A DNA stretch of 64,000 bases, taken from Escherichia phage BP9. Location: sequence record PP488543.1; one strand, written 5' to 3'. Both the position numbers and the translations under genes were made by a program. Shown piece after piece: positions 4,433 to 64,000 of this stretch (position 1 is the stretch's first letter; the number at the start of each line of letters is the position of its first letter). The notes under the pieces were generated by a model. The model made no database searches, had not been told where the DNA came from, and saw nothing but the letters and a program-made list of their open reading frames with translations.

Positions 4433-4458
4433 AGGGGGCTCCGGCCCCCTTTATTTTA
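4433..4458 (+). terminator. rho-independent terminator
   Basis: agggggc-tccg-gccccct hairpin followed by ttattttat, right after the tape measure stop. Confidence 0.65.
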
Positions 4459-11491: not shown

Positions 11492-11527
11492 CATAGGGGG
11501 GCTGTTTGCCCCCTTTCAGGAGAAAGA

Positions 11528-16030: not shown

Positions 16031-16135
16031 GATGATCAGAGCGCCATTAGATAATTTATTTCTTGAAAGCTGGAGCTTGATGGTGTTGAGATCTTAATTG
16101 CTGCAAAGCTGGAGCTACCGACAGGAACTGTCAGG

Positions 16136-16582
16136 GTGTGCTCAGGCACTGGTGTTGTAGTAATTGAGGGGCAACATTTTATAGGGATAGGTGGGTCAGC
16201 AACATTAACCGCTGTGTCTGAGAAAGATGCCACCAACTTCGGATCTGTGGTAGCGACATTGAACGGGTTTGATCCTAAGTATGTGGGTGATCTGCTGAAG
16301 ACGGAGTATTCTGGTTGTCGTGCCACGTTGTACATTACCGCTATGGAGAATGGTCTGCCTGTTACAACTAATGGCTTGTTTGACGGCCTTATAACAGATA
16401 TGGCTATTCAGACGGGTGAGAATAGCGCTTTGTCCATATCCATCTCTTCCATCTTCAACAGTTGGTTAAGAGGTTTTCCTTATCGGTACACGGAGGAAAG
16501 CCACAGCTCAAGAAACGATAACGACAGATTTTTTAAATATGTGGATCAGGTGGCGAGCCGCCCGATCATTTGGGAGGTTTAA
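16136..16582 (+). CDS. putative minor tail protein (lambda L / hub-associated position)
   Basis: GTG start at 16136 in the track; the frame is open upstream to about 16055 with a possible TTG start near 16076. Synteny only. Confidence 0.3.
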   Translation: MCSGTGVVVIEGQHFIGIGGSATLTAVSEKDATNFGSVVATLNGFDPKYVGDLLKTEYSGCRATLYITAMENGLPVTTNGLFDGLITDMAIQTGENSALSISISSIFNSWLRGFPYRYTEESHSSRNDNDRFFKYVDQVASRPIIWEV

Positions 16583-37754: not shown

Positions 37755-38226
37755 TTACTCCGGTTCAGGATCTGGGTAATCTTCAATAATAAAGGGCCAT
37801 CCGTTCCGCTTAGCCTCAGACTTATACTCAATCTCCTTCATTGCAAACTCTAACTGATTCTTAGCCGGAATACATGCCGGAGAATCATCAATCCAGATGT
37901 CTGGGTAGATATCAAACTGCGCCAGATAGGCTGCCTTCTGAACACCTCCAGTATAAAACACACCAACATCAAGCTCCTTGCGCCAATACTCAATGTCTAC
38001 ATTGTCTTGAGTAATGAATCGGAAAGTCACAAGGTAGACTGTCCACCCCCTCCTTCTTCAGATCCCTGATCAGGCGGGAGAAGATGAAAGGGCTCGCATT
38101 AAATGTTCCATCAAAGTCAATGGCAATGATGTGTGTGCCGTGGCGTGTCTCATATGGATTGCTTGTGGTAAGATTGCTGTAGTTAAAAGGGACCTCTTCC
38201 CCGCAGTAGCTGTAGTCCATATTCAC
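37755..38226 (-). pseudogene. HAD-superfamily 5'(3')-deoxyribonucleotidase-like phosphatase, split by a frameshift at a homopolymer run
   Basis: Track ORFs 37990..38226 (N-terminal part with the HAD motif IIAIDFDGTF) and 37755..38030 (C-terminal part with IWIDDSP) overlap in different frames. Removing one base from the C5 run at about 38046-38050 (G5 on the coding strand) gives one continuous ~157-aa HAD protein reading ...LKKEGWTVYLVTFR.... Confidence 0.6.
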
Positions 38227-49838: not shown

Positions 49839-50738
49839 ATGATTTTCATCTACGAACATTTCAAAACCCGTAAAGAAGCAAGAGACCGCCGTGCAGAACT
49901 TGAGAAGAAGGGTTTCATATGTGCCATTGAGAAAGGCGACACAACCTGGACACTGGCAGTTGGTGCCCCAGAGTTGTTCGATCCTGACCGTGACAGCGTC
50001 TGCTACACCCGTGAAGATTTTGAAACCCGCGAAGAGGCCCGTTTATTTCGATACGGTCTGGAAGATAACGGTAAGTACGCCATGATCTTAGATTTAGGCG
50101 AAGGGTCCGTTAAACGTTGGGGCGTGGTATACCCACTGTGTGTTGTTCATGGTGTGGGGTTCACTGGGGTAGCAATCAAGTCAGAAGAACCTTTAGTAGA
50201 AGTCAAAGATCCGGTGCTGGAGGTGGTGAGCAGTGTATCTCAGCAACAGACTCGAAGTATTGAGCCTTTGGTAGTTATTTGTGGGGAACTCCTCCAGATC
50301 ACCTGCAACGAAGGCATTTTTGAAATTCGCCGCAGTGAAAGTGAGGAAGTTTACCAGAAAGTCTTCGACCATATCTCTGTCCAGAAATATGACGAGGCAA
50401 TTGGTGAAATCCTTGTCTGGTTGGAACGCAAGAATGAGTTCACTACACTTGCAGACAACCTGATCATGAAAGATGGTAAGCTCTACTACTACGGTGTAGA
50501 GATGCGATCCACCATTGCAAAGAAAATTGAGAAAGATTATGCAGACGGAACACTAGATGACCGCTATGTGAAATTCCTAGTTCGCCTGCTACGCAATCCT
50601 TCTGCAAAATCTGTAAACATGCTCTACGATTTTATGCAGGCCAACGATATCCAGCTTGCAGAAGATGGTCGAATCATTTGCTACAAAGGAGTTCATTTTC
50701 CATCGTTTTTTTGCCGAGCAGGAGCTGGAGTTCTTTAA
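49839..50738 (+). CDS. hypothetical protein with two N-terminal repeats; 3' end replaced by IS2 sequence (possible rIIB-like partner, unverified)
   Basis: Repeats [19 protein letters not shown] / [18 protein letters not shown]; the last ~17 codons are encoded by IS2-derived DNA (IS2 homology begins at about 50688), so the native C-terminus is lost. Confidence 0.4.
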
Positions 50739-50976
50739 TCTGCTTCATGGCAGCAGCAAGTTCAGAGGCAGGAACGACCTGTTCTCCTGCGGCCACAGCA
50801 GTAAGACTTCCCTCCTGGTATTGCTTGCGCCAGAGAAATAACTGGCTGGCTGCCACACCGTGTTGCCGGGCAACAAGGGAGACCGTCATTCCCGGTTCAA
50901 AGCTCTGCTGAACAATAGCGATCTTTTCCTGTGTAGTACGCCGTCTGCGTTTCTCCGGTCCTAAGACATCAATCAT
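50674..50976 (-). pseudogene. insC: truncated IS2 insC (orfA) reading out of the IS fragment into phage DNA
   Basis: InsC N-terminal ~96 aa are intact, then the frame runs across the junction at about 50688 and terminates at 50674. Confidence 0.8.
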
Positions 50977-51067
50977 CTGCTCTCCAATGACTAGTCTAAA
51001 AACTAGTATTAAGACTATCACTTATTTAAGTGATATTGGTTGTCTGGAGATTCAGGGGGCCAGTCTA
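50688..51067 (-). mobile_element. IS2 fragment (left inverted repeat plus 5' part of insC/orfA), truncated internally
   Basis: Reverse complement matches the IS2 left end TAGACTGGCCCCCTGAATCTCCAGACAACCAATATCACTTAAATAAGTGATAG... and the start of InsC ([84 protein letters not shown]..); only ~380 bp of the 1.3-kb element is present. Confidence 0.9.
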
Positions 51068-51386
51068 TATTCCACGCTGTACTGCAGTGATGAATGGAGT
51101 ATCTTCTGATCTTATCGGTTCAAATTCGTTTCAGGTAAACCCATCTATTTTTCACAAACATACTAGTTCAATCGATGTCAATAATGGAATTCATTCTATG
51201 GCATACGATAATCACATGGCCTCTGGTAACATTGCAGAAACTGAAATATCTGAACTTACTCAGGATATTGTATCTAAAATAAAACTTGGTTATGCAAGTG
51301 AAACGACTTCTGGAGTTGATGTTGTTATTGCCAGAGTGCAGGTTATTTTTGATGGATTAACATCATCTGGAGTTTGCAGGAAATAA
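51068..51386 (+). CDS. 3' remnant of a gene interrupted by the IS2 insertion (product unknown)
   Basis: The frame is open across the IS2 end at 51067; the encoded C-terminal ~100 aa are Gly/Ser/Asn-rich; no family recognised. Confidence 0.3.
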
Positions 51387-51549
51387 ATTTTGGCAACTAA
51401 TAAACCGCCTTACATTTATGGTTGTTTATGAATATTGTCATCAAAAACCAATGAATTGATAGTTATTTCAGAATATCTGATGGTTAAACATATATGGTTT
51501 GTTGTGTGTGGTGAGCTGTAAGTGAAGAGGTTCGATATGTACAAAAAAA

Positions 51550-51966
51550 ATGGTGTGTGCTATGTCGGTTAACATAACAACTGAGTCTTTAAATCAATGG
51601 CTTAGTGTGAGCTCTCTTGCTGCGGTTATCGTAGGCGTTCCGCCAGAGGTGGCGCTCGGTGCTCTTGCTGGCGCGGTAATTTTTGTTACCTCTGCGGTAG
51701 AGTATCCAATTCGTCGTCGCGTACTCTTGTCGATGCTCAGCTTTCTCTGCGGACTTCTTTTCTACAAACCAGCAGCATCAATTCTTATCGGCATAGCCAG
51801 CCTGATCCCTACCATCACGCAGGACTCTTTTGAAAAAGGTATTGTTTTCTCTGCTGGCGCATTCGTGTCAGCAATTGTCGCTGTGCGTATTGGTATATGG
51901 CTCTACCACCGTTCAGACAATCCACGCGATTTAATTCCGGGGAGAAAAGACGATGGTAACGCATGA
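51550..51966 (+). CDS. putative holin (multi-pass membrane protein, 138 aa)
   Basis: 3-4 predicted transmembrane helices; first gene of a cassette containing endolysin and spanins; alternative in-frame start at codon 5. Confidence 0.5.
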   Translation: MVCAMSVNITTESLNQWLSVSSLAAVIVGVPPEVALGALAGAVIFVTSAVEYPIRRRVLLSMLSFLCGLLFYKPAASILIGIASLIPTITQDSFEKGIVFSAGAFVSAIVAVRIGIWLYHRSDNPRDLIPGRKDDGNA

Positions 51967-52261
51967 GTTTTTTTTGCTTATCACCAATGCAGTTATTTGT
52001 ACTGGCATAGCAATTCGCGTTGTCACATTCCGGCGTAACGGATCTCAACACCGAAGATGGGGTGGGTGGATTGCTTATTTCCTGATTGTTGCTGCGGCCA
52101 GTATTCCTGTTCGTGTCGTTTATGCAATCTGGTTACGCACGCCAATGGCTGTGGATTTATCTGAGGTCATTATCAACGCTGTCATGCTTGCTGCGGTTAT
52201 TAAAACGCGCGGTAACGTCGTTCAGATTTTCAAAATAACGAGGTCTAAACATGGAGATTAA
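51953..52261 (+). CDS. putative second lysis membrane protein (holin/antiholin-like, 102 aa)
   Basis: Three hydrophobic helices; overlaps the holin stop and the endolysin start. Confidence 0.45.
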
Positions 52262-52880
52262 ACAATTCCAGCGAGCTGCTGGTATTAGAGAGGCGCTGGC
52301 CGCTCGCTGGTTCTCGCATATAACTTCTGCGATGAAAGAGTTTGGTATCAGCAAAGCAGAGGATCAGGCAATGTTTATTGCTCAGGTCGGGCATGAATCT
52401 GTGGGCTTCACCAGATTGCAGGAGAATTTCAACTACAGTGTCAGCGGTCTGGCTAACTTCGTTCGGGCTGGGCGTCTCACTCAGGGGCAGGCTAATGCAC
52501 TGGGTCGCCGTGCTGGTGAACCACCATTGCCACTCGAGCGCCAGCGAGCGATCGCCAATCTGGTGTACAGCAAACGCATGGGGAACAATTCCCCTGGTGA
52601 CGGCTGGAATTACCGAGGCCGTGGACTTATCCAGATTACCGGTTTGAATAACTATCGTGACTGCGGAAACGGCCTGAAAGTGGACCTGCTGGAGAATCCT
52701 GAACTGTTAGCGCAGGACGAATATGCGGCTCGTAGCGCGGCGTGGTTCTTCTCCAGCAAAGGTTGCATGAAGTATACCGGCGATATTGCACGTGTAACTT
52801 TGATTATCAATGGTGGCAGGAACGGCATCGACGACCGGAGAGCGCGGTACATCACTGCCAGTAAGGTGCTGGCGGTATGA
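52251..52880 (+). CDS. endolysin, glycoside hydrolase family 19 (chitinase-like lysozyme)
   Basis: GH19 signatures ([12 protein letters not shown] ... [16 protein letters not shown]) in a lysis-cassette context. Confidence 0.8.
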
Positions 52881-53359
52881 TCTGGGCATTCGTAAAAGCA
52901 TACTGGAAACAGTTGCTTATCGTGGCGGTGCTTGCTGTTCTGGTCATATCAGGGGTTGTTGCCTGGAATGTACACGGTAGTCGTCAGTACGACGCCGGGT
53001 ATGCACAGGCGAAAGAAGACCGCAAAACCGAAGATGAGAGAGTTCGTCAGCACTACGAACAGGAGAAATCGATCAATGAACGTGAAGCGCAGCAGAGGAT
53101 CGACCAGGCGCGCAATGATGCTCTTGATGCTGCCGCTCGCGCTGGCCGGTTGCAGCAACAGCTCGTTGCCATCCGTGAGCAGCTCAGGCAGTATAACGCC
53201 ATTGTCGGCGCTGGGACGTCAGCCGCAGACACCGGAGTTTTGCTTGCCGACGTGCTCAGTAAATCTCTCGAGAGAAACAGACAACTGGCAGAGTATGCTG
53301 ACCGGGCAGCCGAAGCCGGAAGAGTCTGTGAAAAACAGTACGACACCCTGACCAGATAG
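52877..53359 (+). CDS. Rz: i-spanin (Rz-like)
   Basis: N-terminal transmembrane segment ([18 protein letters not shown]) followed by coiled-coil periplasmic domain; contains an embedded lipoprotein gene in another frame. Confidence 0.65.
53076..53351 (+). CDS. Rz1: o-spanin (Rz1-like outer-membrane lipoprotein) embedded within Rz
   Basis: ATG at 53076 preceded by AGGAGAAATCGATCA; lipobox LALAGC ([30 protein letters not shown]), Pro-rich mature part; entirely inside the Rz gene in a different frame. Confidence 0.7.
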   Translation: MNVKRSRGSTRRAMMLLMLPLALAGCSNSSLPSVSSSGSITPLSALGRQPQTPEFCLPTCSVNLSRETDNWQSMLTGQPKPEESVKNSTTP

Positions 53360-53532
53360 CATGGCATTTTTCATGGTACTGATTTCCGGTGACGGTATAT
53401 AAAACGGTACGGTAAAAATTGAGATTTGGAAAAATGTTATCACTCAATTGGTTATGGTATCCGTAAATAATTGAGTGGGAATGATTAACAGCTAACTCAT
53501 AGCAAATCATTCCTATTCAGATGCTAACTCAA

Positions 53533-53566
53533 CCCTCTGTTTTTGCAGAGGGTTTTTGTTTTTATG
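53533..53566 (+). terminator. rho-independent terminator downstream of the lysis cassette
   Basis: ccctctg-tttttg-cagaggg hairpin followed by tttttgtttttat. Confidence 0.6.
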
Positions 53567-53676
53567 TATTCATTTCTATTCACTCTACACCATATTTTTC
53601 GGCGGTACAGGTGACGGTATTACCTTAAAGGTATACTCTCATACCGTCATGAAAATGGTTTCTATATGGGTGAATT

Positions 53677-54933
53677 GTGCTTACCGATACAAAATTAAAA
53701 AACCTCAAGCCGCAGGACAAACTGTACAAGGTCTCCGACCGTGACGGGCTGTATGTAGCTGTGCTTACGTCAGGCACGGTCTCGTTTCGCTATGACTACC
53801 GTATCAACGGTCGCCGCGAAACACTGGTAATCGGGCAGTATGGGCGTGACGGTATCAGCCTGGCAGAAGCGCGAGAAGAACTGATTGCTGCAAAGAAGCT
53901 GCTTAAAGCAGGCCAGTCACCGGCTGCGGCTAAACGTGACGGTATCAAAAAGATTCGTGGTGCCGAGACGTTTGCGGTACATACCGACAGTTATATGAAA
54001 CACGTCATCCTGGCTGACAGTACCCGCGCAATGAAGCAGGCGGTGATCGACCGTGACATACTTCCGGTTCTTGGCAACAAAATGATGGCTGAAATTACCA
54101 CATCGATGGTTCGTGATTTGTGTGACCGGATTGTCGAACGCGGTGGTCGGGCAACAGCAGTACAGGCCAGGGAGATCATCAGCAGCGTATACCGTCACGC
54201 CAATGACCGTGGTCATGGTTTGTTTAATCCTGCGGCTGACATTAAACCTTCGTCTATCGCCATATTTAAACCACGAGAGCGAACACTGACACCAGAAGAA
54301 ATTGGCCTGTTCTTCCGCACGCTGGATGCCATTGGTGCTATGGGCACTATGAAAATGGCTTTAAAGCTGGTGCTTATCACTATGGTTCGTAAAGGCGAAT
54401 TCACCAATGCAACGTGGGATGAAATAGATTTTAAAAAATGGACATGGACAATTCCTTCAGACCGCATGAAGGGAAGCCGGGCGCACGTTATTTACCTGCC
54501 TAAACAGGCACAGGATATATTGGTTGGGTTGCAGATGTGCGCTGGTGGAAGTGAATATCTGGTTCCTGGTCGTTACAATTTCCGGAAGCCATTATCTAAT
54601 GCCGCGCTGAACTCTCTGATCGACAGAACGGTGAAAATAATAAATGAAGATGGTGAGCATATTCAGGGCTTCACCGTACACGATATGCGCCGTACAGCCA
54701 GTACGTTGTTGCATGAGGCTGGTTATCCTTCAGACTGGATTGAAAAGGCGCTGGCACATGAGCAGAAAGGTGTGCGCGCCGTATATAACAAAGCGGAATA
54801 CGCCAGACAGCGCGCCTGGATGTTGCAGCAGTGGGCCGATATGATTGATTCCTGGATTAACGGGGAGCATACGGATCTGATTCCGTTCTCCCCGTCGAAG
54901 TTTGAGAGGTGGATGGAAGACAGTAATAAATAA
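53677..54933 (+). CDS. int: tyrosine integrase, P4-like family
   Basis: N-terminus MLTDTKLKNLKPQDKLYKVSDRDGLYVAVLTSGTVSFRYDYRINGRRETLVIGQYG is the classic P4-type integrase arm-binding domain; the C-terminal catalytic region contains HDMRRT and a tyrosine near the end (RAVYNKAEY). Confidence 0.9.
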   Translation: MLTDTKLKNLKPQDKLYKVSDRDGLYVAVLTSGTVSFRYDYRINGRRETLVIGQYGRDGISLAEAREELIAAKKLLKAGQSPAAAKRDGIKKIRGAETFAVHTDSYMKHVILADSTRAMKQAVIDRDILPVLGNKMMAEITTSMVRDLCDRIVERGGRATAVQAREIISSVYRHANDRGHGLFNPAADIKPSSIAIFKPRERTLTPEEIGLFFRTLDAIGAMGTMKMALKLVLITMVRKGEFTNATWDEIDFKKWTWTIPSDRMKGSRAHVIYLPKQAQDILVGLQMCAGGSEYLVPGRYNFRKPLSNAALNSLIDRTVKIINEDGEHIQGFTVHDMRRTASTLLHEAGYPSDWIEKALAHEQKGVRAVYNKAEYARQRAWMLQQWADMIDSWINGEHTDLIPFSPSKFERWMEDSNK

Positions 54934-54935
54934 TT

Positions 54936-55595
54936 CTATCCTTCCTGGACTTTGGTAAGCGTCAGATTTCCGCAGAACACTGCGCCGGTGTCGATGTACA
55001 TCTGGTTTGCATACACCAGTGGGTGATGTGCTGGCGTATGACCGAAGATGAACAAATCGGCACCGGTTATCTCCGAGACAATACCGTCCTGCGCGTCGCT
55101 AACCCGCTCACGATTCCATATCACCATTTCTTCTGGTACTGGCTTATCGAATGCGTATTCGTTGTGCGGGTAGTCTGCGTGACAGATGACGACCTTCTTA
55201 TTGCCGGTAACCAGTTCGATAATCATCGGGAGGTTGGTAATCTTTGGCAGAAGGTATTTGAGTTGCACATCCTGCTCAGAATCAAGTTGGTGCCACCATC
55301 CACCGCCGTTTGACATCCAATGTCCGAAACTTCCGCCGTTGACCAGTGCATCCAGCATCATCTGCTCATGGTTGCCACGAACAGCTCGGAACCACGGCAT
55401 AGTAATCAAATCCAGGCATTCGACGTTTTCAGCGCCGCGGTCAACAAGGTCACCAACGGAAATAAGTAAATCGCGCGCCGGGTCGAATGAAACTTTGTCG
55501 AGTTCGTTCATCAGCAGCGTGTAGCACCCATGCAGATCGCCGACGACGAAGATATTGCACCAGTCAGCACCATTGATGCGTTGATATAGGTTCAT
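54936..55595 (-). CDS. Ser/Thr protein phosphatase (lambda NinI / PP-lambda-like metallophosphatase)
   Basis: Metallophosphatase motifs GDLHGC, GDLVDRG, GNHE. The probable start is the internal Met ([12 protein letters not shown]) at about 55595, giving ~219 aa and a 4-bp overlap with the upstream gene; the track ORF extends to 55715. Confidence 0.85.
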
Positions 55596-56242
55596 GCTGC
55601 ACGCTCCCGCCCCTGGTTGTCTATTGGTGACACCGGAGCATTGCTGAATGCATTTGTTAATCCGCCAATATCCAACGCGTATCCAGGGTGTAGTTGCACT
55701 ACCGGGTCTTCGCACTGATTACCCCAAACATCGAAGCCATGAGACGTCTGGCGGGCGAACAGTTCAATGCGAGAAACATCGCCTAACAATTGCACAAGTT
55801 TTTCACGAACGACATCTGGTTTTCTTGAATGCTCAAGCCGCGGTGCGGTAAATGCCTGAACGATCCCTGCATTAATGCGTGGAGGTAGTTTTCCCTTTAC
55901 TGCAAACAGGCAATCTTCACTATTGGCGCGAGTCATGTGTCCCATACCCATAACCAGTTTATCTGGTTGTCGACTACCACATTTTATCCACGTGAAGCCC
56001 TTCATCGTCATCAGACGAAATCCCCAGGCTTCAACAACTTTTAGTGCTTCGAGTGGTTGTGTTGGCACCCACCACATGGCCAACAGACAGTTTTCATCGG
56101 CCAAATCCCACACAGGAAGGCGGCAGATATCCAGCACACTCATAACCGGATATTTAAAACCGGCACCGCGATTACCATCTGCGGCTTTGTCCCGGTATAC
56201 CCAGGGTGGATCTGCATAGATTAGCGTGTATTTCTTAGTCAT
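55592..56242 (-). CDS. MT-A70 family N6-adenine DNA methyltransferase (orphan, no cognate nuclease seen)
   Basis: Catalytic DPPW motif ([10 protein letters not shown]) and the MT-A70 fold pattern. Confidence 0.8.
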
Positions 56243-56534
56243 AAACCACCCCGCAACATCCTATGCCGCTATAGTCGCCACGGCGAAGGCCGTTACCTTT
56301 TGTGATACATTGGTCCCTGCGAACCGCGATCCTTGCACGCTCAACATCACCAGAAGCAACATCCATACACTTAAGCCAAAGGTGAGCGGCAATGCGGAAC
56401 TGTCCTTTTTTCTCTCTTTCAATTGCGCGTTTTTCGAACTCTATCGCCGCAGGAGTAACGGCGACAATCTTTGACGGACTGCGCATTGAAACCTTGTTCA
56501 TGTGATATTTTTCAAGTCGGCTTAACTTTCTCAC
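56235..56534 (-). CDS. hypothetical early protein (99 aa)
   Basis: ORF in the leftward early operon overlapping the methyltransferase start; no family recognised. Confidence 0.35.
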   Translation of the reverse strand: MRKLSRLEKYHMNKVSMRSPSKIVAVTPAAIEFEKRAIEREKKGQFRIAAHLWLKCMDVASGDVERARIAVRRDQCITKGNGLRRGDYSGIGCCGVVYD

Positions 56535-56643
56535 TTAATCCAACCCTCTCTGAAAATTAATGCCAGCAGATAAAGCCATGCTGAAACAGAGGCCAGGAAT
56601 AAGTACCATCCTGACCATTTGCTCCAGTGCCTTAGCAGCACAC

Positions 56644-56892
56644 TCATGCAGCGTTGCTCACAGGACGATATACACGTTGCTGAACAGGAGGCTTTTTACC
56701 CTGGAACTCTGCCGGGCTTGCTGCCTGACGTTCATCAAGCCAACGCTCAACTTCATCACGGTTCCATGCGCAGCGTTTGTCAGTGATATACCAGCGTTTA
56801 GGAAATTCCCCTGCGCGCTCCATGCGGTCGATAGTGCTCCATGACAGTGGCACCACCGCCAGGAGTTCCTTCTTACCTAATGCACCTTTCAT
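56644..56892 (-). CDS. AlpA-family transcriptional regulator / putative excisionase
   Basis: MerR-like helix-turn-helix (..ELLAVVPLSWSTIDRMERAGEFPKRWYITDKRCAWNRDEVERWL) typical of AlpA/Xis proteins that accompany P4-type integrases. Confidence 0.6.
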   Translation of the reverse strand: MKGALGKKELLAVVPLSWSTIDRMERAGEFPKRWYITDKRCAWNRDEVERWLDERQAASPAEFQGKKPPVQQRVYRPVSNAA

Positions 56893-56941
56893 AAATACCT
56901 CTCTTGGTTGCAGTGCGGCGCGCGTGGCGCCGCGGTGGTGG

Positions 56942-57910
56942 TTACATAGATGTTTCGTTTAATTCTTCCCGACGAACGCTGTAAACGTCGGTGGCTTTTG
57001 CCAGCAGTTCGTCATCATCTGAAAGTTTTTGTGCAATGTATTTGTAAGCTTTATCCAGTTCGGAGACAGTGCTGTAATTCATCGCTGCGCTGGTAAAGGC
57101 CATCAGCATTTCTTCTGGATCACGGCTATCCGCTTTACGCGTTTGCTCATCAGGCTTTTTCACTTGTTTAGCGTTGATCAGACTGTTCATTCCCGCAGCA
57201 GTGGTCGTTTGCGGAGTAATGTCTCGCTCAACGCGCGGTGCCGTTTCCTGTAATTCGTCTGGTGTGTAGACGCCCATGATTACGTCAGGACAGTGCAAGC
57301 GAGACCAGCGTTTTGTCGCAAGGTATGCGAGTTGTTGTTTCGGATCACTGGCCCAAAGTGTGGAGTTTCTTACCTGTGCTTGAGATAGCATTAACTCAAG
57401 CACTCGAGGTTGATCCTCGCCCTTCATGGTTGCCCATACGCGAACACCGCAGCCTTCTTCGTCTTTTAGAGTCCAGCCTGGTGCAATATATGGATTGCCG
57501 TTTTTGGATGTTTTCTCAACAAACTTACCGATCACGCGTTCCCACGGCCCGAACCACTCGTAGTTGATGCGATCTTTTGTTGGCGACATCGTTGAGATAA
57601 CTGCGTTTACTAATTGGGCTTCATAACCTAGCGTGCCGTTCACAACATGGGTTTTCTGAGCCACGGCAAACGGGTTCATTCCCCACTGCGCAGCCTGCAT
57701 TGCCACGGCCATGCAATCAGCTGGTTTCCCGGCGAGGTGCGCCGGTACCGTTACGCGGCTTTGCGCCATTACCTCGGCGAATTTCATCAGTTGGTTCAAG
57801 CCGTCTGGGCTGAAAATAGTTGCAGCAGTTCCAGCGATTGCTGTGTCTACTGGTGCGTTGATGTTTGCGATGTCGTTGCTCATATGTACATATCCTGTTT
57901 GCGTGCCCAC
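56942..57910 (-). CDS. RecT/Red-beta-family single-strand annealing protein
   Basis: Domain order and conserved C-terminal block (QQLAYLATKRWSRLHCPDVIMGVYTPDELQE) resemble RecT; overlaps the upstream exonuclease gene as in recET/red operons; probable ATG start at about 57883. Confidence 0.55.
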   Translation of the reverse strand: MGTQTGYVHMSNDIANINAPVDTAIAGTAATIFSPDGLNQLMKFAEVMAQSRVTVPAHLAGKPADCMAVAMQAAQWGMNPFAVAQKTHVVNGTLGYEAQLVNAVISTMSPTKDRINYEWFGPWERVIGKFVEKTSKNGNPYIAPGWTLKDEEGCGVRVWATMKGEDQPRVLELMLSQAQVRNSTLWASDPKQQLAYLATKRWSRLHCPDVIMGVYTPDELQETAPRVERDITPQTTTAAGMNSLINAKQVKKPDEQTRKADSRDPEEMLMAFTSAAMNYSTVSELDKAYKYIAQKLSDDDELLAKATDVYSVRREELNETSM

Positions 57911-58701
57911 TCAGGGCGTTTAATGATTTCCACACCGCCCCATTCATCATTGATGCGGCATTCGTGATAGGTATTCAGATCCCGGCGGAACAGAGCGTGC
58001 CCGGCATCGACATCCTGCGCATCCAGCTCGAACACGCGTACCGGATACCGACCACAATCAATGCTTTCGCTCACGGCAAGAAAGAAAAAACCATGCGGCT
58101 GACCAGTAACCCTCATTGCGCCTTCGCGGTACATTGCGTCCTGCACGTGGTAGCGGAATTCCTCGATGTGGCGTGCAAAACGGTCCATATCTGCAACCTT
58201 TTTCACGTCGACGATCACGTTGTGCTCGTTCAGCCATTTGTCTGGACGAATTCGGCACAACTCACCCGTCTCTTCATCGTTCCAGTACATTGACGCTTCG
58301 CAGTAACCAGGTGCTTCCAACATCCAGCGTGCAGCCGGGTGAGCCATTGTGCTATCACGCATCAGCTCCAGTTTTCGCCACTGCTCGACATCAAGTACCG
58401 TAATACCCATATCCGCCACATCACGAAGAAATGCTTCTTCGTCAGCTTTACCTTGTTTTGTCCGACGATCGAATTTCGGTGAAACGATGAAGCGTTTGTC
58501 GAATTCTCCAGGTTCCAGAAGCAGACAGTGCAATGCGGTTCCCATATCCAGTGCAGACTTTTTCTCTTCGTCTTCTGGTGCTGCCTGAACCCATTTAAGA
58601 AGCGCCGGATTCTTGGCAACCATGTCAAGTTGCGACTTACTCACGCCGTCACCGGCGTGGTAGTCTTCGTTGCTGATGCCGAAATAAATTCCCGGTTTCA
58701 T
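57880..58701 (-). CDS. PD-(D/E)XK-family phage exonuclease (YqaJ/RecE-like recombination exonuclease)
   Basis: Catalytic motif arrangement (..CRIRPDKW..VIVDVKKV..) and genomic pairing with a RecT-like gene. Confidence 0.55.
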   Translation of the reverse strand: MKPGIYFGISNEDYHAGDGVSKSQLDMVAKNPALLKWVQAAPEDEEKKSALDMGTALHCLLLEPGEFDKRFIVSPKFDRRTKQGKADEEAFLRDVADMGITVLDVEQWRKLELMRDSTMAHPAARWMLEAPGYCEASMYWNDEETGELCRIRPDKWLNEHNVIVDVKKVADMDRFARHIEEFRYHVQDAMYREGAMRVTGQPHGFFFLAVSESIDCGRYPVRVFELDAQDVDAGHALFRRDLNTYHECRINDEWGGVEIIKRPEWARKQDMYI

Positions 58702-59012
58702 GCCGCGTCCTTCTGTCCATCAAGCTGATCCGCCAGATCCCAGCGGGCGATAATTGCCATTGCCTCTCGCCGGTAGGCATCCATTAGTTCTTCGAACTCA
58801 GGGCTGTCTTTAGCGGCCTCCAGCACTTCCTGACGAACGCCTTTGCCTGTTACAACGTCAAAAGTTGAGGCCAGTTGATGAAGCCGGATACTCTCAATCA
58901 GTTCGACTTGTCGGTCATATAGCTGTTCTGACAGGCGGTAGTCCTTGTCGAATGCCAGCATGATTTTTTGAAGATTTTTCTGCTGATTAACGTTCATTAT
59001 CAGCCCTCCCAT
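58698..59012 (-). CDS. hypothetical early protein (104 aa)
   Basis: ORF in the leftward early operon, at the position held by gam/kil-type genes in lambda; no motif recognised. Confidence 0.35.
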   Translation of the reverse strand: MGGLIMNVNQQKNLQKIMLAFDKDYRLSEQLYDRQVELIESIRLHQLASTFDVVTGKGVRQEVLEAAKDSPEFEELMDAYRREAMAIIARWDLADQLDGQKDAA

Positions 59013-59171
59013 ATCTCGTTATCGTTGGCCACATCGCGAGCTTCTTTGCTGACGAAAGCCCACTTAATGCCTTCCTGTAAGGTGCGGAACTTCCAGCTCA
59101 TGAATCCGCATGCAGTAACGCAGTACCAACCGTTGATGATTTTCCACTGCATAACTTGTTACCTCGGTCTG

Positions 59172-59186
59172 TTACCGTTGAGGTAA
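59172..59186. promoter_or_regulatory. operator half-site pair TTACC-N5-GGTAA (leftward early promoter region)
   Basis: TTACCgttgaGGTAA; an extra TTACC half-site lies 9 bp upstream. Confidence 0.5.
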
Positions 59187-59232
59187 TGATTATGCGTATT
59201 TGGTTTGGTGTCAATAGATATGAGTTAAAAAA

Positions 59233-59249
59233 ATTACCCTTAAGGTAAT
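59233..59249. promoter_or_regulatory. 17-bp operator ATTACC-N5-GGTAAT (leftward early promoter region)
   Basis: ATTACCcttaaGGTAAT, perfect inverted half-sites, located between the repressor terminator and the leftward early genes. Confidence 0.6.
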
Positions 59250-59260
59250 TGTGTAGACAA

Positions 59261-59283
59261 TAAAAAAGCCGCCAGAAGGCGGC
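59261..59283 (-). terminator. rho-independent terminator of the repressor gene
   Basis: On the minus strand gccgcc-ttct-ggcggc followed by a U-run (the plus strand shows AAAAAA then gccgcc-agaa-ggcggc), 20-45 bp downstream of the repressor stop. Confidence 0.7.
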
Positions 59284-59305
59284 TTACTTACTGAAAAATA
59301 TGATT

Positions 59306-59890
59306 TTATTGTTTGTTTTTTTCGTTCTGGTTGATGACAAATTCAATGTAACTTTCGATCTTTGCTTTCTCGGTTTCGGGTAACAATGCGTAGCGCGAGC
59401 GGTCATAGTTGATGGTCGCAGGGTCGTGCGGGTGAATCAGTAATTCATAGCCGTGACGCCCGAATGCGGATGCAACATTCTCCAGGGTGGAAATGGAAAC
59501 GCTGACCTCATTGTTTAACAGGCGGCTGATTGTCACCTGGGCGACGCCGGATGCGCGGTGAAGTTTTCCCTGTGTTGAAAGGTCGCGGCTTTCGCTCATC
59601 CAGCGTTCCAGGTTGTGAGCCGCCAGCTGACCAATGTCGCTTGGGCCGACAGGCTGAAAACCTTCCTGAGAAAGCGAGCGATCGATATCAAGCCAGTTAC
59701 GGGGTTTATTGGCGGCAGCTTCAATTTTTCGCGCAACCTGGTCGCCGATAACCTTCTTGCCAAGAGCCCAGCGGTTTACCAGATTTGCCTGAGTTCCAAG
59801 TTTTTCTGCCATCCGCGTCTGAACACCATTGAATTCACGGTCGATCAAGTCGTTGAGATTTTGCCTGCGGACGTCCTGGATACTTTTCAT
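59306..59890 (-). CDS. CI-like repressor with helix-turn-helix domain(s) and no recognisable LexA/S24 peptidase domain
   Basis: Divergent from a cro-like gene; helix-turn-helix segment QTRMAEKLGTQANLVNRWALGKKVIGDQVARKI and a second HTH-like segment ASGVAQVTISRLLNNEVSVSISTLENVASAF; operators on both sides. Confidence 0.6.
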   Translation of the reverse strand: MKSIQDVRRQNLNDLIDREFNGVQTRMAEKLGTQANLVNRWALGKKVIGDQVARKIEAAANKPRNWLDIDRSLSQEGFQPVGPSDIGQLAAHNLERWMSESRDLSTQGKLHRASGVAQVTISRLLNNEVSVSISTLENVASAFGRHGYELLIHPHDPATINYDRSRYALLPETEKAKIESYIEFVINQNEKNKQ

Positions 59891-59944
59891 TTTCTGGAAA
59901 ATCGCCTCGTATATGAATCAGTAGATGATTCAATTTAAAGCAAT

Positions 59945-59961
59945 ATTACCCAACAGGTAAA
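59945..59961. promoter_or_regulatory. 17-bp operator ATTACC-N5-GGTAAA in the divergent repressor/cro control region
   Basis: ATTACCcaacaGGTAAA, 55 bp from the repressor start. Confidence 0.6.
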
Positions 59962-59990
59962 TGCACCCCATAGGTAACTATCCTTGATTT

Positions 59991-60019
59991 TTGTTACCTT
60001 ATGGGTGAATATTTATTAT
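59991..60019 (+). promoter_or_regulatory. putative rightward early promoter (TTGTTA-17 bp-TATTAT) with overlapping operator TTACC-N5-GGTGA
   Basis: -35 at 59991-59996, -10 at 60014-60019; the imperfect operator at 59994-60008 lies in the spacer; cro-like ATG at 60045. Confidence 0.45.
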
Positions 60020-60044
60020 CTGAAATAAATATCAGGCAATAGCT

Positions 60045-60275
60045 ATGAGCGATAACGGACATTTCGATTTCAAAAAGCACTGGCTTGCACTTACTCCGGA
60101 TGAGCGTGAAGCCTTCGCACAGGAAGCCGGAACGACGAGTCACTATATCCAGACTCACTTAACAGGTAAGCGCAAAATGCCAGGTAAAGTATTGATGAAT
60201 GGGCTTTTTAAAGCCTGTAAAACAAGACAATGGCTGCGCTCAAAAGCAGAACTGGCATACTTCTTCTACTCATGA
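60045..60275 (+). CDS. Cro-like / YdaS-like small DNA-binding regulator (76 aa)
   Basis: Small basic protein transcribed divergently from the repressor, in the canonical cro position. Confidence 0.5.
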   Translation: MSDNGHFDFKKHWLALTPDEREAFAQEAGTTSHYIQTHLTGKRKMPGKVLMNGLFKACKTRQWLRSKAELAYFFYS

Positions 60276-60425
60276 TATCCAGCCACAACCCTCTGTAGAC
60301 CGCCACCCGGCGGTCTTTTCATATCTATTCGCACCTCAAAGGTAATAAAAAACCAAATCTGGTTGATCTTTTTTTTGTGTCAGCACAAAATGACCGTAAT
60401 CCCAATACTAATAACAGGGCTTACC

Positions 60426-60626
60426 ATGGAAATCATTACACGTATTGATGCCGCAAAGCGCGGACTTAAACGCTACTACACCGGAAAACCATGTAAGCAC
60501 GGACATGACAGTGAACGTTGGGTTTACAACGGACACTGTGTTGAGTGCACCATGGAATCAAACCGTCGCATCAGGGCTGAGATTAAGCAGATCATGATTA
60601 ATTCCTCCCCACAACATTCAAGCTGA
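60426..60626 (+). CDS. small zinc-binding protein in the cII position (about 66 aa from the internal ATG)
   Basis: CKHGHDSERWVYNGHCVEC Cys/His cluster; the track ORF starts at 60363 but its N-terminus is hydrophobic junk-like, so the internal Met is preferred. Confidence 0.4.
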   Translation: MEIITRIDAAKRGLKRYYTGKPCKHGHDSERWVYNGHCVECTMESNRRIRAEIKQIMINSSPQHSS

Positions 60627-60641
60627 TAGCGGAGATTAATC

Positions 60642-61433
60642 ATGAGCAGACATGCAACAGATTGGGCCTGGGAGACAGATCCAGGTAGCTCATCATTAAA
60701 GCTCATACTGCTCTCGATGGCTGACAGAGCCGATGAATATAACCTCTGCTACCCCAGCATAGAACGCCTCGTTAAAGACACTTGCCTGAATAAAAAAACC
60801 GTGCAGGCCGGGCTTATATCGCTCATGAAAATGGGGCTTATTTCAGATACCGGAGAGAGAAAGGGAGCGACAAAAAGAGTGCGGGTTTTCTCTCTTAATA
60901 TAACCAAAAACGGGAACATTAAAGGCAACCGGGAGGGGGGCAATGAACCCGAAAACGGTAATGTTACCGAAAACGGGAATATACCCAAAAACGGGATGTT
61001 GAATGATCCCAAAAACGGGATCCAGAACCAGTCATATAACCAGTCATTTAACCAAGAGAGGGAGAGCAGGACAAAAAACGGGGATTCTGTGCCTCATGAC
61101 CCCGACGCAAACAACGCCGTGATGAATAACTTTGTTCCTCCTGGTGGGCCAGGGCAATTAGGCAAATTTGTCATGCATGAACAATGGCAGCCATCAGATG
61201 ACTTTCTTCGGAAAAGCTCATTGCAGGGGATCTACCTGGACAGTCTGCCAACGGCACAGGAACTTGCAGAGTTCAGAATTTACTGGATGGCTGAGGGTAA
61301 GGCATACCATCAGGCACAGTGGGAGCAGAAGCTGGCAAGGCGGCTGCAGATTAGCAGACAGAAGCAATCAACATTACCTGATAACAACGTTCCGCACTGG
61401 AACAGCCCTGAAGCATGGGAGGATTTCTTGTGA
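60642..61433 (+). CDS. replication initiator / replisome organiser (lambda O-like) containing the putative origin
   Basis: N-terminal winged-helix pattern like lambda O; six AAAACGG(G/T)AA iterons lie inside the gene; directly followed by a lambda P homologue. Confidence 0.65.
   Translation: MSRHATDWAWETDPGSSSLKLILLSMADRADEYNLCYPSIERLVKDTCLNKKTVQAGLISLMKMGLISDTGERKGATKRVRVFSLNITKNGNIKGNREGGNEPENGNVTENGNIPKNGMLNDPKNGIQNQSYNQSFNQERESRTKNGDSVPHDPDANNAVMNNFVPPGGPGQLGKFVMHEQWQPSDDFLRKSSLQGIYLDSLPTAQELAEFRIYWMAEGKAYHQAQWEQKLARRLQISRQKQSTLPDNNVPHWNSPEAWEDFL
60906..61088. repeat. iteron array (six copies of about cc.aAAAACGG(G/T)AA), candidate origin of replication
   Basis: Copies begin near 60906, 60951, 60968, 60986, 61011 and 61073, inside the O-like gene, followed by an A/T-richer stretch with ccagtcat repeats. 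Confidence 0.6.
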
Positions 61434-62215
61434 ACAACGTTTTTACCGCGATACAAAACCGTGACGGAGAAGCCCTTTCTCGCATGTCAGGTTATGAGCA
61501 TCAGTACGTCAACAATGACAATGTGGTGAACATGTCAGCAGAGAGGCTTGTTGATGCCCTTTTTAAACAGCTGAAACAACTGTTTCCGGCGGCAGTGGTA
61601 ACCAACCTGAAGACGCCAGAGCAGGAAGTTGCTGCAAAACAGCAGTGGATTGCTGCGTTTGCCGAAGGGGGGATCCGAACCCGTGAACAGGTTTCTGCTG
61701 GTATGCGCCACGCCCGCGCCAGTGAATCTCCGTTCTGGCCGTCTCCAGGGCAATTTATCAAGTGGTGCAAAGACAGCAAGATGGTTCTTGGCGTCACCAT
61801 TGACGATGTGATGGCGGAGTTTCACCGGTACAGCAAGGAAAAAAGTTTATATCCTGGTGGTCCCGAAAGATTCCCGTGGCGACATCCGGTTATGTACTGG
61901 GTCGTATGTGATACCCGCCGCGCAATGTATCAGCGCCAGCTTAGCGAGATTGAGGTTGAGAAACACGCACGCAGGCTGCTCGATGATTGGGCGAAAAAGG
62001 TGGCTTCCGGACAGCAGATACCCGATCCGGTGATCAGCATACAGGCAAAGCCAGAACCCATGAGTACGCCTCCGGACACAGGGAGAGACGTTTACCATCC
62101 ACCAGGGCGAAGTTTCGGGTGCATGCCTAACGCCGCCACCCTTGGGGGAATAACACCGGCGCAGTGGCTGATGGAGGAATACAGGCGGGGAAAGGCGGCA
62201 GGATTTATCAAGTAA
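61415..62215 (+). CDS. P: replication protein P homologue (DnaB helicase loader)
   Basis: Strong similarity to lambda P: AAFAEGGIRTREQVSAGMRHARASESPFWPSPGQFIKWCKD versus lambda LAFRENGITTMEQVNAGMRVARRQNRPFLPSPGQFVAWCREE. Confidence 0.85.
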   Translation: MGGFLVNNVFTAIQNRDGEALSRMSGYEHQYVNNDNVVNMSAERLVDALFKQLKQLFPAAVVTNLKTPEQEVAAKQQWIAAFAEGGIRTREQVSAGMRHARASESPFWPSPGQFIKWCKDSKMVLGVTIDDVMAEFHRYSKEKSLYPGGPERFPWRHPVMYWVVCDTRRAMYQRQLSEIEVEKHARRLLDDWAKKVASGQQIPDPVISIQAKPEPMSTPPDTGRDVYHPPGRSFGCMPNAATLGGITPAQWLMEEYRRGKAAGFIK

Positions 62216-62220
62216 TACCA

Positions 62221-62240
62221 GCGCGATAGCGCATTTTTTT
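62221..62240 (+). terminator. rho-independent terminator after the P-like gene
   Basis: gcgc-gata-gcgc hairpin followed by attttttt, beginning 6 bp after the P stop. Confidence 0.5.
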
Positions 62241-62245
62241 ACGTC

Positions 62246-62274
62246 TTGATAATTACCTGTTGGGTAATAAAATA
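62246..62274 (+). promoter_or_regulatory. repressor-gated promoter: TTGATA -35, 17-bp operator ATTACCtgttgGGTAAT as the spacer, AAAATA -10
   Basis: The 17-bp palindromic operator (62252-62268) exactly fills the spacer between the -35 (62246-62251) and -10 (62269-62274) hexamers. Confidence 0.55.
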
Positions 62275-62313
62275 TTCTAAAATCTATTGATTTCGTGTCT
62301 TATGTGGTTTTTA

Positions 62314-62330
62314 ATTACCTTAGAGGTAAA
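62314..62330. promoter_or_regulatory. second operator ATTACC-N5-GGTAAA overlapping the Shine-Dalgarno of the 62333 gene
   Basis: ATTACCttagaGGTAAA ends 2 bp before the ATG at 62333; the GAGG ribosome-binding site is inside the operator. Confidence 0.55.
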
Positions 62331-62332
62331 TC

Positions 62333-62680
62333 ATGAGAAAACAGATACAGGCTCTTGGTCGACTCAAAACAGGCCAGATGAACAAAACAGAATCTGCGTA
62401 TTGCCAGCACCTTGAGCAGCGTAAACGTGCAGGGGAAATCGCCTGGTATCGATTCGAGGGTATTAAGCTGCGGTTAGCTGACAACACGTTCTATACGCCC
62501 GATTTCGCTGTGATGCTCGCCACCGGAGAGATGGAACTGCACGAAGTGAAAGGGGGATTCTGGACCGACGACGCCAGGGTGAAAACCAAAGTAGCCGCAG
62601 ATCAGTATCCGTTCCGAATCATCGGGGTAACGGTTAAACCAAAGAAAGCAGGTGGCGGCTGGAACATCGAAGAGTTCTGA
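62333..62680 (+). CDS. DUF1064-like PD-(D/E)XK nuclease-fold protein (115 aa)
   Basis: Pattern ..MNKTESAYCQHLEQRKRAGEIAWYRFE..L.LA..TFYTPDFAV....ELHEVKGG....AR.KTKVAADQYP matches the DUF1064 layout with a PD..E.K core. Confidence 0.5.
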   Translation: MRKQIQALGRLKTGQMNKTESAYCQHLEQRKRAGEIAWYRFEGIKLRLADNTFYTPDFAVMLATGEMELHEVKGGFWTDDARVKTKVAADQYPFRIIGVTVKPKKAGGGWNIEEF

Positions 62681-62741
62681 ATCGACGATCTTTTTAGTTA
62701 TCAATGTAATCAATAAGTTATGTGGATAAGCGAGGGTAAAG

Positions 62742-63278
62742 ATGGAAAGTAATATCAAAGGGTTAGTTTCCGCCGGGCATGAGATGGCTTCGGAACTGAA
62801 AGCTGAATGTGGTGCCGTTGATATGCGTAGTGTGGCAAAGCTGCTCAGCGATTTGGCAACGCAACTGGAAGTGCAACTGGTGCGTGCTAATGCGCTGGCA
62901 GCGGAGAGTGCGGGGCTGAAGTCTGCGCACCCTCAACCATTCGGACATGAGATGATGAAGGCTCTTGATGCGTATGAGAAGCATCAGGATGAAGTGCCAG
63001 AGACTGGAATGCTCAATGCATTTTTCATCTTGCGCGACAGCATCCGTGTTGACACCCCAGCCACCGACGCTTTCCTGGCTGAAGTACGGGCGCAGGGCGT
63101 GGATGCTGCTATAGAAGCTGCAAAAAATCTGGTGGCCCAAGAATATGAGTATAAGGATTTCAAAGCGGCGCAGAGTGATTGCTGTATGCACCCTGGTTCA
63201 GACCTGGTAGGGAAGGTTGAAATGACTGAGTGGTTAGTTGACTTTGCTGCCCAGCTTCGCAAAGGAGGCAACCAGTGA
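62742..63278 (+). CDS. hypothetical protein (178 aa)
   Basis: ORF in the rightward operon; 4-bp overlap with the downstream gene. Confidence 0.4.
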   Translation: MESNIKGLVSAGHEMASELKAECGAVDMRSVAKLLSDLATQLEVQLVRANALAAESAGLKSAHPQPFGHEMMKALDAYEKHQDEVPETGMLNAFFILRDSIRVDTPATDAFLAEVRAQGVDAAIEAAKNLVAQEYEYKDFKAAQSDCCMHPGSDLVGKVEMTEWLVDFAAQLRKGGNQ

Positions 63279-63826
63279 GCGAAATTAATTACCAGGCACT
63301 GCGTGAGGCGGCGGAACGTGCAATTCCAGCAATGGAACGCCTGTTAATGTTGCCAGCTGATGATGATTTGTTAAGTGAACAGGAACTTAAAGATTACGGT
63401 GTGGATATTGATGCGCTCAACGCCTTCAAATTTCTGGCCGGACCAGAAACCGTGCTGGCACTACTGGATGAACGGGAAAGGAACCAGCAATACATCAAAT
63501 CCCGCGACCAGGAGAACGAGGATATTGCGCTAACGGTAGGGAAGTTGCGCGTTGAGCTGGAAGCAGCAAAATCAAAACTCAACGAGCAGCGTGAGTATTA
63601 CGAAGGTGTTATCTCTGATGGGAGTAAGCGCATAGCAGAGTTAGAAAGTGGTTCTCAGGCACAAAAGTTAGTTGAAGCAATCATTGTTGCGATAGAAAAC
63701 GAACAGGAACGTCTTTTTGATGAAGATTACCTAATGGATTCGAAAGAATGCATTGACGTAATTCGTGAAGAAGTAAAGCGATGGGATGATTCCCGCGCCG
63801 CTGGCATTGGCATCAAAGGAGAGTGA
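63275..63826 (+). CDS. ead/Ea22-like coiled-coil protein (183 aa)
   Basis: N-terminus MSEINYQALREAAERA resembles the Ea22-family start as I recall it; acidic coiled-coil rest. Confidence 0.4.
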   Translation: MSEINYQALREAAERAIPAMERLLMLPADDDLLSEQELKDYGVDIDALNAFKFLAGPETVLALLDERERNQQYIKSRDQENEDIALTVGKLRVELEAAKSKLNEQREYYEGVISDGSKRIAELESGSQAQKLVEAIIVAIENEQERLFDEDYLMDSKECIDVIREEVKRWDDSRAAGIGIKGE

Positions 63827-63828
63827 TA

Positions 63829-64000
63829 TGGCAACTTTGACAAAAAAAGAACAAGCATGGTTGAGCGAATTACAGGACGTTCTTGATCGCTGCCCATCAC
63901 CGAAAAAAATTGGTTTTTACACCATTGGCGATAAAAGCATTTACCTGTATGACCTGCGCCGCATGGATGAAATCATGGAGGCTCTTGATAATCGTTCGTC
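63829..64000 (+). CDS. hypothetical protein, 3'-truncated at window end
   Basis: ATG at 63829 (MATLTKKEQAWLSELQDVLDRCPSPKK...) with the frame open to the window edge. Confidence 0.35.

Follow-up and report, generated by a model that had tools for sequence, protein, structure and literature searches.

A recurrently altered four-G run and the probable loss of a conserved HAD-fold phosphatase-like gene in Escherichia phage BP9

In prfB (RF2), a Shine-Dalgarno sequence is located about 3 nt upstream of the codon at which the P-site tRNA re-pairs in the +1 frame, a stop codon occupies the A site, and the shifted arrangement is conserved. The poly-G contingency tracts of Campylobacter phages (Fletchervirus) and of bacteria typically contain at least nine G and vary within a single lysate. 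A gene of Escherichia phage BP9, a Vequintavirus (rV5-like myophage), bears some likeness to both: it shares with prfB a Shine-Dalgarno-like element upstream of a codon that permits +1 re-pairing of the P-site tRNA, and with the contingency tracts a run in which differences in the number of G set an open reading frame in or out of frame. This conserved gene of the early region is interrupted by a single extra G in a G-run within the window analysed (64,000 nt of sequence record PP488543.1). The favoured explanation, to which a probability of about 60% is assigned, is that the insertion is real, arose by strand slippage at a hot spot and inactivated a gene that has long been conserved although the phage can dispense with it.

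The features of the locus are as follows, with conservation of the HAD motifs given for an alignment of five close homologues (A4) and another of 57 distant homologues (A6).

37755..38220, minus strand: the whole disrupted gene, 466 nt (465 nt or 154 codons in relatives), HAD-fold phosphatase-like.
38046..38050, minus strand: the G5 run, site of the +1 insertion, at codons 57-59 of the restored gene (GAG GGG TGG).
37990..38220, minus strand: N-terminal fragment ORF of 76 aa (WXX17782.1), 58 native residues including motif I and then 18 out of frame.
37755..38030, minus strand: C-terminal fragment ORF of 91 aa from GTG (WXX17781.1), with motifs II-IV.
38049..38055, minus strand: Shine-Dalgarno-like AAGGAGG read from the sequence, overlapping the start of the G-run and encoding K-E-G.
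38104..38118, minus strand: HAD motif I, D35-F-D37-G-T39, containing the nucleophile and the acid/base aspartate; invariant in both alignments.
38025..38027, minus strand: HAD motif II, T65, invariant in A4 and at least 90% conserved in A6.
37935..37937, minus strand: HAD motif III, K95, invariant in A4 and A6.
37884..37889, minus strand: HAD motif IV, D111-D112 (in IWIDDSP), invariant in A4 and at least 90% conserved in A6.

The sequence-only reading had placed the two halves of the gene in different frames at a C5 run, and its coordinates, run and junction were all correct: the minus strand has GGGGG at 38050-38046 (CCCCC on the plus strand), and deletion of one base restores a contiguous protein, with the junction LKKEGWTVYLVTFR, of 154 aa from ATG or 156 aa from GTG (about 157 aa had been estimated). 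The upstream frame begins with ATG at 38220, or with the in-frame GTG at 38226, and ends in a stop at 37992-37990; it reads MDYSYC...IIAIDFDGTFN...LKKEG, followed by the out-of-frame VDSLPCDFPIHYSRQCRH and the stop. The downstream frame is open from 38057 to a stop at 37757-37755 and reads WTVYLVTFRF...GGVQKAAYL...IWIDDSP...PEPE. Due to the frameshift, native sequence ends after G58, between motifs I and II, and the N-terminal fragment, deprived of motifs II-IV, would be inactive. The C-terminal fragment is probably not translated, because its GTG has no Shine-Dalgarno sequence at a usable distance, the nearest GGAGG being 18 nt upstream.

The restored protein is, by its motifs and modelled fold, a capless HAD-fold phosphatase, the activity being predicted. 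D35, D37, T39, R67, K95 and W109 are invariant across the 57 aligned distant homologues, and the structure model has a Rossmannoid three-layer alpha/beta fold like those of solved HAD structures, with motif I at the end of the strand formed by residues 31-35. These motifs and the fold bear out the HAD family that had been proposed from the sequence; the more specific label of 5'(3')-deoxyribonucleotidase is unsupported, as the protein has no match to the profile of that family (NT5C, PF06941) and the deoxyribonucleotidase-like structure 3bwv ranks 52nd among its structural neighbours. No family in Pfam or NCBIfam matched the restored protein at E<=1, and two of the 57 homologues touch PF06189 (E ~1e-3). 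PHROG 4919 and 4256 were matched, both of 'unknown function', and a sequence profile gave only marginal matches in the PDB (designed Rossmann proteins, 2obb and AphA). An exhaustive profile search retrieved 1510 representative relatives, mostly of about 90-130 aa, covering residues 30-120; at 50% identity the family numbers some 1500 representatives, for which Pfam has no model. In homologue P0103 the mini-HAD domain is joined to PF20274, a 'cyclic-phosphate processing receiver domain', and in homologue P0123 to a P-loop NTPase region with weak AAA_16/cobW matches. The fold neighbours and domain fusions suggest a phosphomonoesterase that would act on nucleic-acid ends or on nucleotides. The label 'polynucleotide kinase' carried by related records is unsupported, the 154-aa protein having no P-loop kinase domain, and so is the label 'haloacid dehydrogenase'.

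Because the same gene is whole, with four G (G4), in about 104-116 related phage records, against G5 here, the interruption is not due to chance. This comparison of the orthologous locus, which had been proposed as a check, rests on an 801-nt query that found 116 phage records at 90-99% identity, most of them aligning 800 bases to the 801 of the query, and on a 105-nt query to which 59 of the 60 best records align over 104 nt, i.e. G4; G4 is also present in one IMG/VR contig and three metagenome contigs. DrSchubert, APECc02, A51.2 and 241Ecol014PP each have a single annotated CDS of 465 nt at the same position. When the window is aligned with relatives (GGGGG versus GGGG), the extra G is the sole indel within the gene, and the protein obtained by removing it is 100% identical to those of DrSchubert and A51.2, whose genes differ from each other at 12 nucleotides and no amino acids. 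The dN/dS ratio among seven intact alleles is 0.00-0.10. Because the ratio is this low and the restored protein is identical to that of DrSchubert, the BP9 frameshift is recent. In-frame G4 is found in about 97% of assemblies, and intact alleles are far commoner than altered ones: of the 291 member sequences in the main cluster, the 15 listed account for about 385 contigs by themselves. Judged from these alignments, the protein is kept almost unchanged in the long term, and loss-of-function alleles appear to be frequent, short-lived and located at the tips of the tree.

The run is altered in several other assemblies. Two long Logan contigs (SRR10368070 and ERR2602148) encode exactly the 76-aa N-terminal fragment with G5, and further G5 alleles are present in SRR31618306, SRR30934651, SRR22560106 and the metagenome scaffold ERZ28590029, making six G5 assemblies besides BP9. 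G6 is found in JLBYU08 and in a short contig of SRR25464460 that is identical to it, and G3 in ERR13927946. As in BP9, the JLBYU08 record gives two ORFs for one broken gene, in its case two CDSs annotated as 'putative polynucleotide kinase'. Over about 1.1-1.2 kb, altered sequences differ very little from their G4 sisters: 9/1200 for the window and 4/1200 for SRR31618306, each against DrSchubert; 1/1120 for SRR10368070 against ODLN01; 8/1201 for ERR2602148 against APECc02; and, against UADI01, 1/1070 for ERZ28590029 and 2/1220 for JLBYU08. The G5 carriers of different micro-clades are separated by about 30-80 differences per 1200. Because near-identical sisters have G4 and the G5 carriers are divergent, the length of the run must have changed independently many times; between near-identical sisters, this change is the only indel inside a gene. 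In the UADI01 micro-clade (L005, L010, L015 and L024), with at most four substitutions per kb, four states of the HAD gene coexist: intact, G6, G5 and the nonsense allele W59*. The gene is therefore lost quickly.

Other lesions in the gene include the nonsense alleles W59* (TGG to TGA) in ERZ27283526 and E9* in ERR10504950, and the indels T3 to T4 at cds position 120 in SRR21752245, -CA at position 88 in ERR9514310 and +GC at position 19 in GCA_041867915.1 and SRR30575709. Since substitution stops and dinucleotide indels are not homopolymer miscalls, they indicate genuine natural loss of the HAD gene. The G-run accounts for nine of about 14 independent lesions, a spectrum that is biased because the protein fragments used to retrieve mutants are those expected from lesions in the gene's first half. 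Positive selection for loss is not claimed: disruption of about 3% of several hundred contigs, in a biased sample, fits transient, mildly deleterious mutations.

Three origins had been left side by side by the sequence-only reading: an error, a recent pseudogenisation and a slippage-prone switch. The recurrence at the run and the other lesions favour a loss allele, error is its main rival, and a switch is unlikely. Sequencing or assembly error, by which BP9 would truly have G4 and the extra G would be a consensus miscall in a low-quality record, is a less probable but serious explanation that draws strength from the record itself. The BP9 GenBank record (138,295 bp) is chimeric, comprising an rV5-like phage, an internal IS2 fragment and a phiV10-like prophage. 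At the join 50699/50700, rV5-like homology stops inside rIIB (near codon 287) and is fused to the interior of IS2 orfA, so that the product labelled 'rIIB' (WXX17802.1) has 299 aa in BP9 versus 401 aa in relatives. The piece of IS2 orfA (~50700-51066, minus strand; WXX17803.1, labelled 'IS2 InsA') ends at ~51066/51067, where it abuts a prophage (51067-64000) matching E. coli chromosomes at 100% identity and phiV10 at 96%. Because of these junctions the record must contain host and prophage DNA, and it warrants caution.

A second frameshift lies at 16066-16068 (plus strand), where BP9 has A3 versus A4 in all of the 60 best relatives shown, 68 records being otherwise at least 99% identical. It breaks a 183-aa baseplate/distal-tail gene (~16032-16582) at codon 12 and leaves a remnant of 148 aa (WXX17764.1). 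The other cluster members read all have 183 aa, one of them being seen on at least 1000 contigs, and the gene is full length on more than 1000 contigs in the protein collection; the truncated ORF was not found in the contig index, and cluster look-up showed the remnant to be unique to BP9. The baseplate A3 is probably a sequencing error or the mark of a defective genome. Error in the HAD gene would be consistent with this second, unique frameshift in a structural gene, with a restored protein free of any decay, and with the failure of a 45-nt G5 query, every 28-mer of which spans the run, to match any other record of the phage collection. Complete E. coli genomes and GTDB genomes gave no G5 match.

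Against error, a random miscall is unlikely to strike the exact run that is altered independently in at least eight other assemblies, among them a metagenome scaffold and Logan re-assemblies from different projects. Over about 50 kb compared with DrSchubert, which hold 683 runs of at least four bases, the window has just two uncompensated genic indels, those of the HAD G-run and the baseplate A-run; the assemblies of BP9 and its relatives are therefore not riddled with homopolymer errors. The nonsense alleles created by substitution, moreover, represent real loss of the gene in nature.

A four-G run is not expected to be unusually slippery, which counts against the hot-spot reading, and two structural causes were examined and rejected. 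A DNA hairpin or quasi-palindrome does not explain the hot spot: both strands, with G4 and with G5, folded at -3 to -4 kcal/mol, no better than shuffled controls (z from -0.3 to +0.7). A templated copy from a donor was dismissed since AAGGAGGGGGTGGA, with at most two mismatches, is present solely at the site itself. The second G4 run of the gene (cds position 19) and its two T4 runs are unchanged in length in the sample, and the only visible peculiarity of the altered run is its G-rich context, GGAGGGGTGG. Chiefly because no cause was found for a hot spot at this run, a context-specific sequencing artefact keeps some probability; lesions restricted to the tips and recurrence at one site also fit such an artefact.

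Under the favoured slipped-strand explanation, mispairing during replication of the phage DNA would most likely have added one G to G4; the frameshift would then truncate the protein after motif I, and the remaining 96 codons, which encode motifs II-IV, would be left with no usable ribosome-binding site, producing what the sequence predicts to be a loss-of-function allele. On this view the phage can do without the gene in the short term, and the run is its chief mutational hot spot: G5, G6 and G3 alleles that arose independently, together with nonsense and indel alleles of unrelated origin, occupy tips of the Vequintavirus tree beside intact sisters.

A functional device, either a reversible contingency tract or +1 ribosomal slippage at GGG_G yielding the exact wild-type protein (segment concerned: AAGGAGGGGGUGGAC), is very improbable. 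Its appeal is that G3, G4, G5 and G6 all occur at one run, so that length varies among isolates and toggles the frame; that frequent reversion would give the same pattern of mutant tips beside intact sisters; and that, from the sequence, a tRNA-Gly that slipped from GGG onto the overlapping GGG would decode the native LKKEG-WTVYL, helped by the Shine-Dalgarno-like AAGGAGG immediately upstream. Recoding is, however, unneeded in the ~97% of assemblies that are in frame with G4, and both G6 and G3 are out of frame too. Known phase-variable tracts are far longer, the Shine-Dalgarno-like motif directly adjoins the slip codon (0 nt), and the A site would hold the common GUG, neither a stop nor rare. 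KKEG and the run are missing from homologues with 58-65% identity (which have KKYG, KNNG or QKAG), and the nonsense and indel alleles of unrelated origin speak for simple loss. Nor is the out-of-frame layout conserved, as it would be in programmed +1 frameshifting: about 100 relatives or more have G4, and the shifted alleles are scattered tips.

A more specific conjecture, itself quite improbable, is that the GGAGGGGTGG run is a Vequintavirus contingency site at which frequent slippage, possibly reversible, switches off a HAD phosphatase that heals nucleic-acid ends when it becomes a liability. If true, the phosphatase would be shut off, for example, where it triggers host defence, or where hosts without tRNA or RNA nucleases make it superfluous. 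The G5 alleles might keep low expression through a putative +1 slip at GGG_G next to AAGGAGG.

Several other differences were noted. In the Logan contig of ERR2602148 (L013/L016), at locus position ~2074, 11 bp are deleted between the direct repeats GCACTTTGAAA and GCACTTTGCT, so that two genes upstream of the HAD gene, of 81 aa and 188 aa, form a single ORF of 267 aa; a 56-aa gene downstream is likewise not called in this contig. Two terminator-like hairpins differ between the window and DrSchubert, at ~4434-4450 (GGGGGCTCCGGCCCCC followed by a T-run) and at ~11496-11515 (GGGGGGCTGTTTGCCCCC followed by a T-run), their G-runs being G5 versus G7 and G6 versus G5, respectively; these polymorphisms are intergenic. 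From 15 to 18 unannotated 'Campylobacter phage' records (MG0656xx) are 96-99% identical to E. coli Vequintavirus DNA at the loci examined, and look mislabelled or contaminated.

Homopolymer frameshifts are common in non-essential phage genes and would not surprise specialists; the modest interest of this one lies in its recurrence at a mere four-G run, and in its flagging a conserved gene as conditionally expendable. Strong long-term purifying selection together with repeated losses at the tips marks the gene as a conditionally useful accessory function, and makes it a candidate counter-defence or end-repair enzyme. A literature search returned nothing on BP9, JLBYU08 or the SRA runs, and published work on Vequintavirinae escapers (retron Eco2 and Avs2) does not concern the HAD gene.

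Among described phosphatases, the phosphatase domain of T4 Pnkp (1ltq, 5uj0) is about 15% identical to the BP9 protein, which has 154 aa and no visible P-loop. NT5C enzymes (e.g. 3bwv) belong to the same HAD superfamily and have a similar motif I and motif IV. The capless (C0) HADs BT0820 (2obb), the KDN9P and KDO8P phosphatases (3e81, 1k1e) and Cgl NP_599989 (2pr7) are 15-24% identical to the BP9 protein; these enzymes act on sugar phosphates as tetramers, whereas there is no indication of either property for the BP9 protein. At the level of the run, prfB has a 3-nt spacer, a stop codon in the A site and a conserved shift, none of which is present in BP9. Compared with the contingency tracts of Fletchervirus and bacteria, the Vequintavirus run is short, with four G (range 3-6), and about 97% of genomes are in frame.
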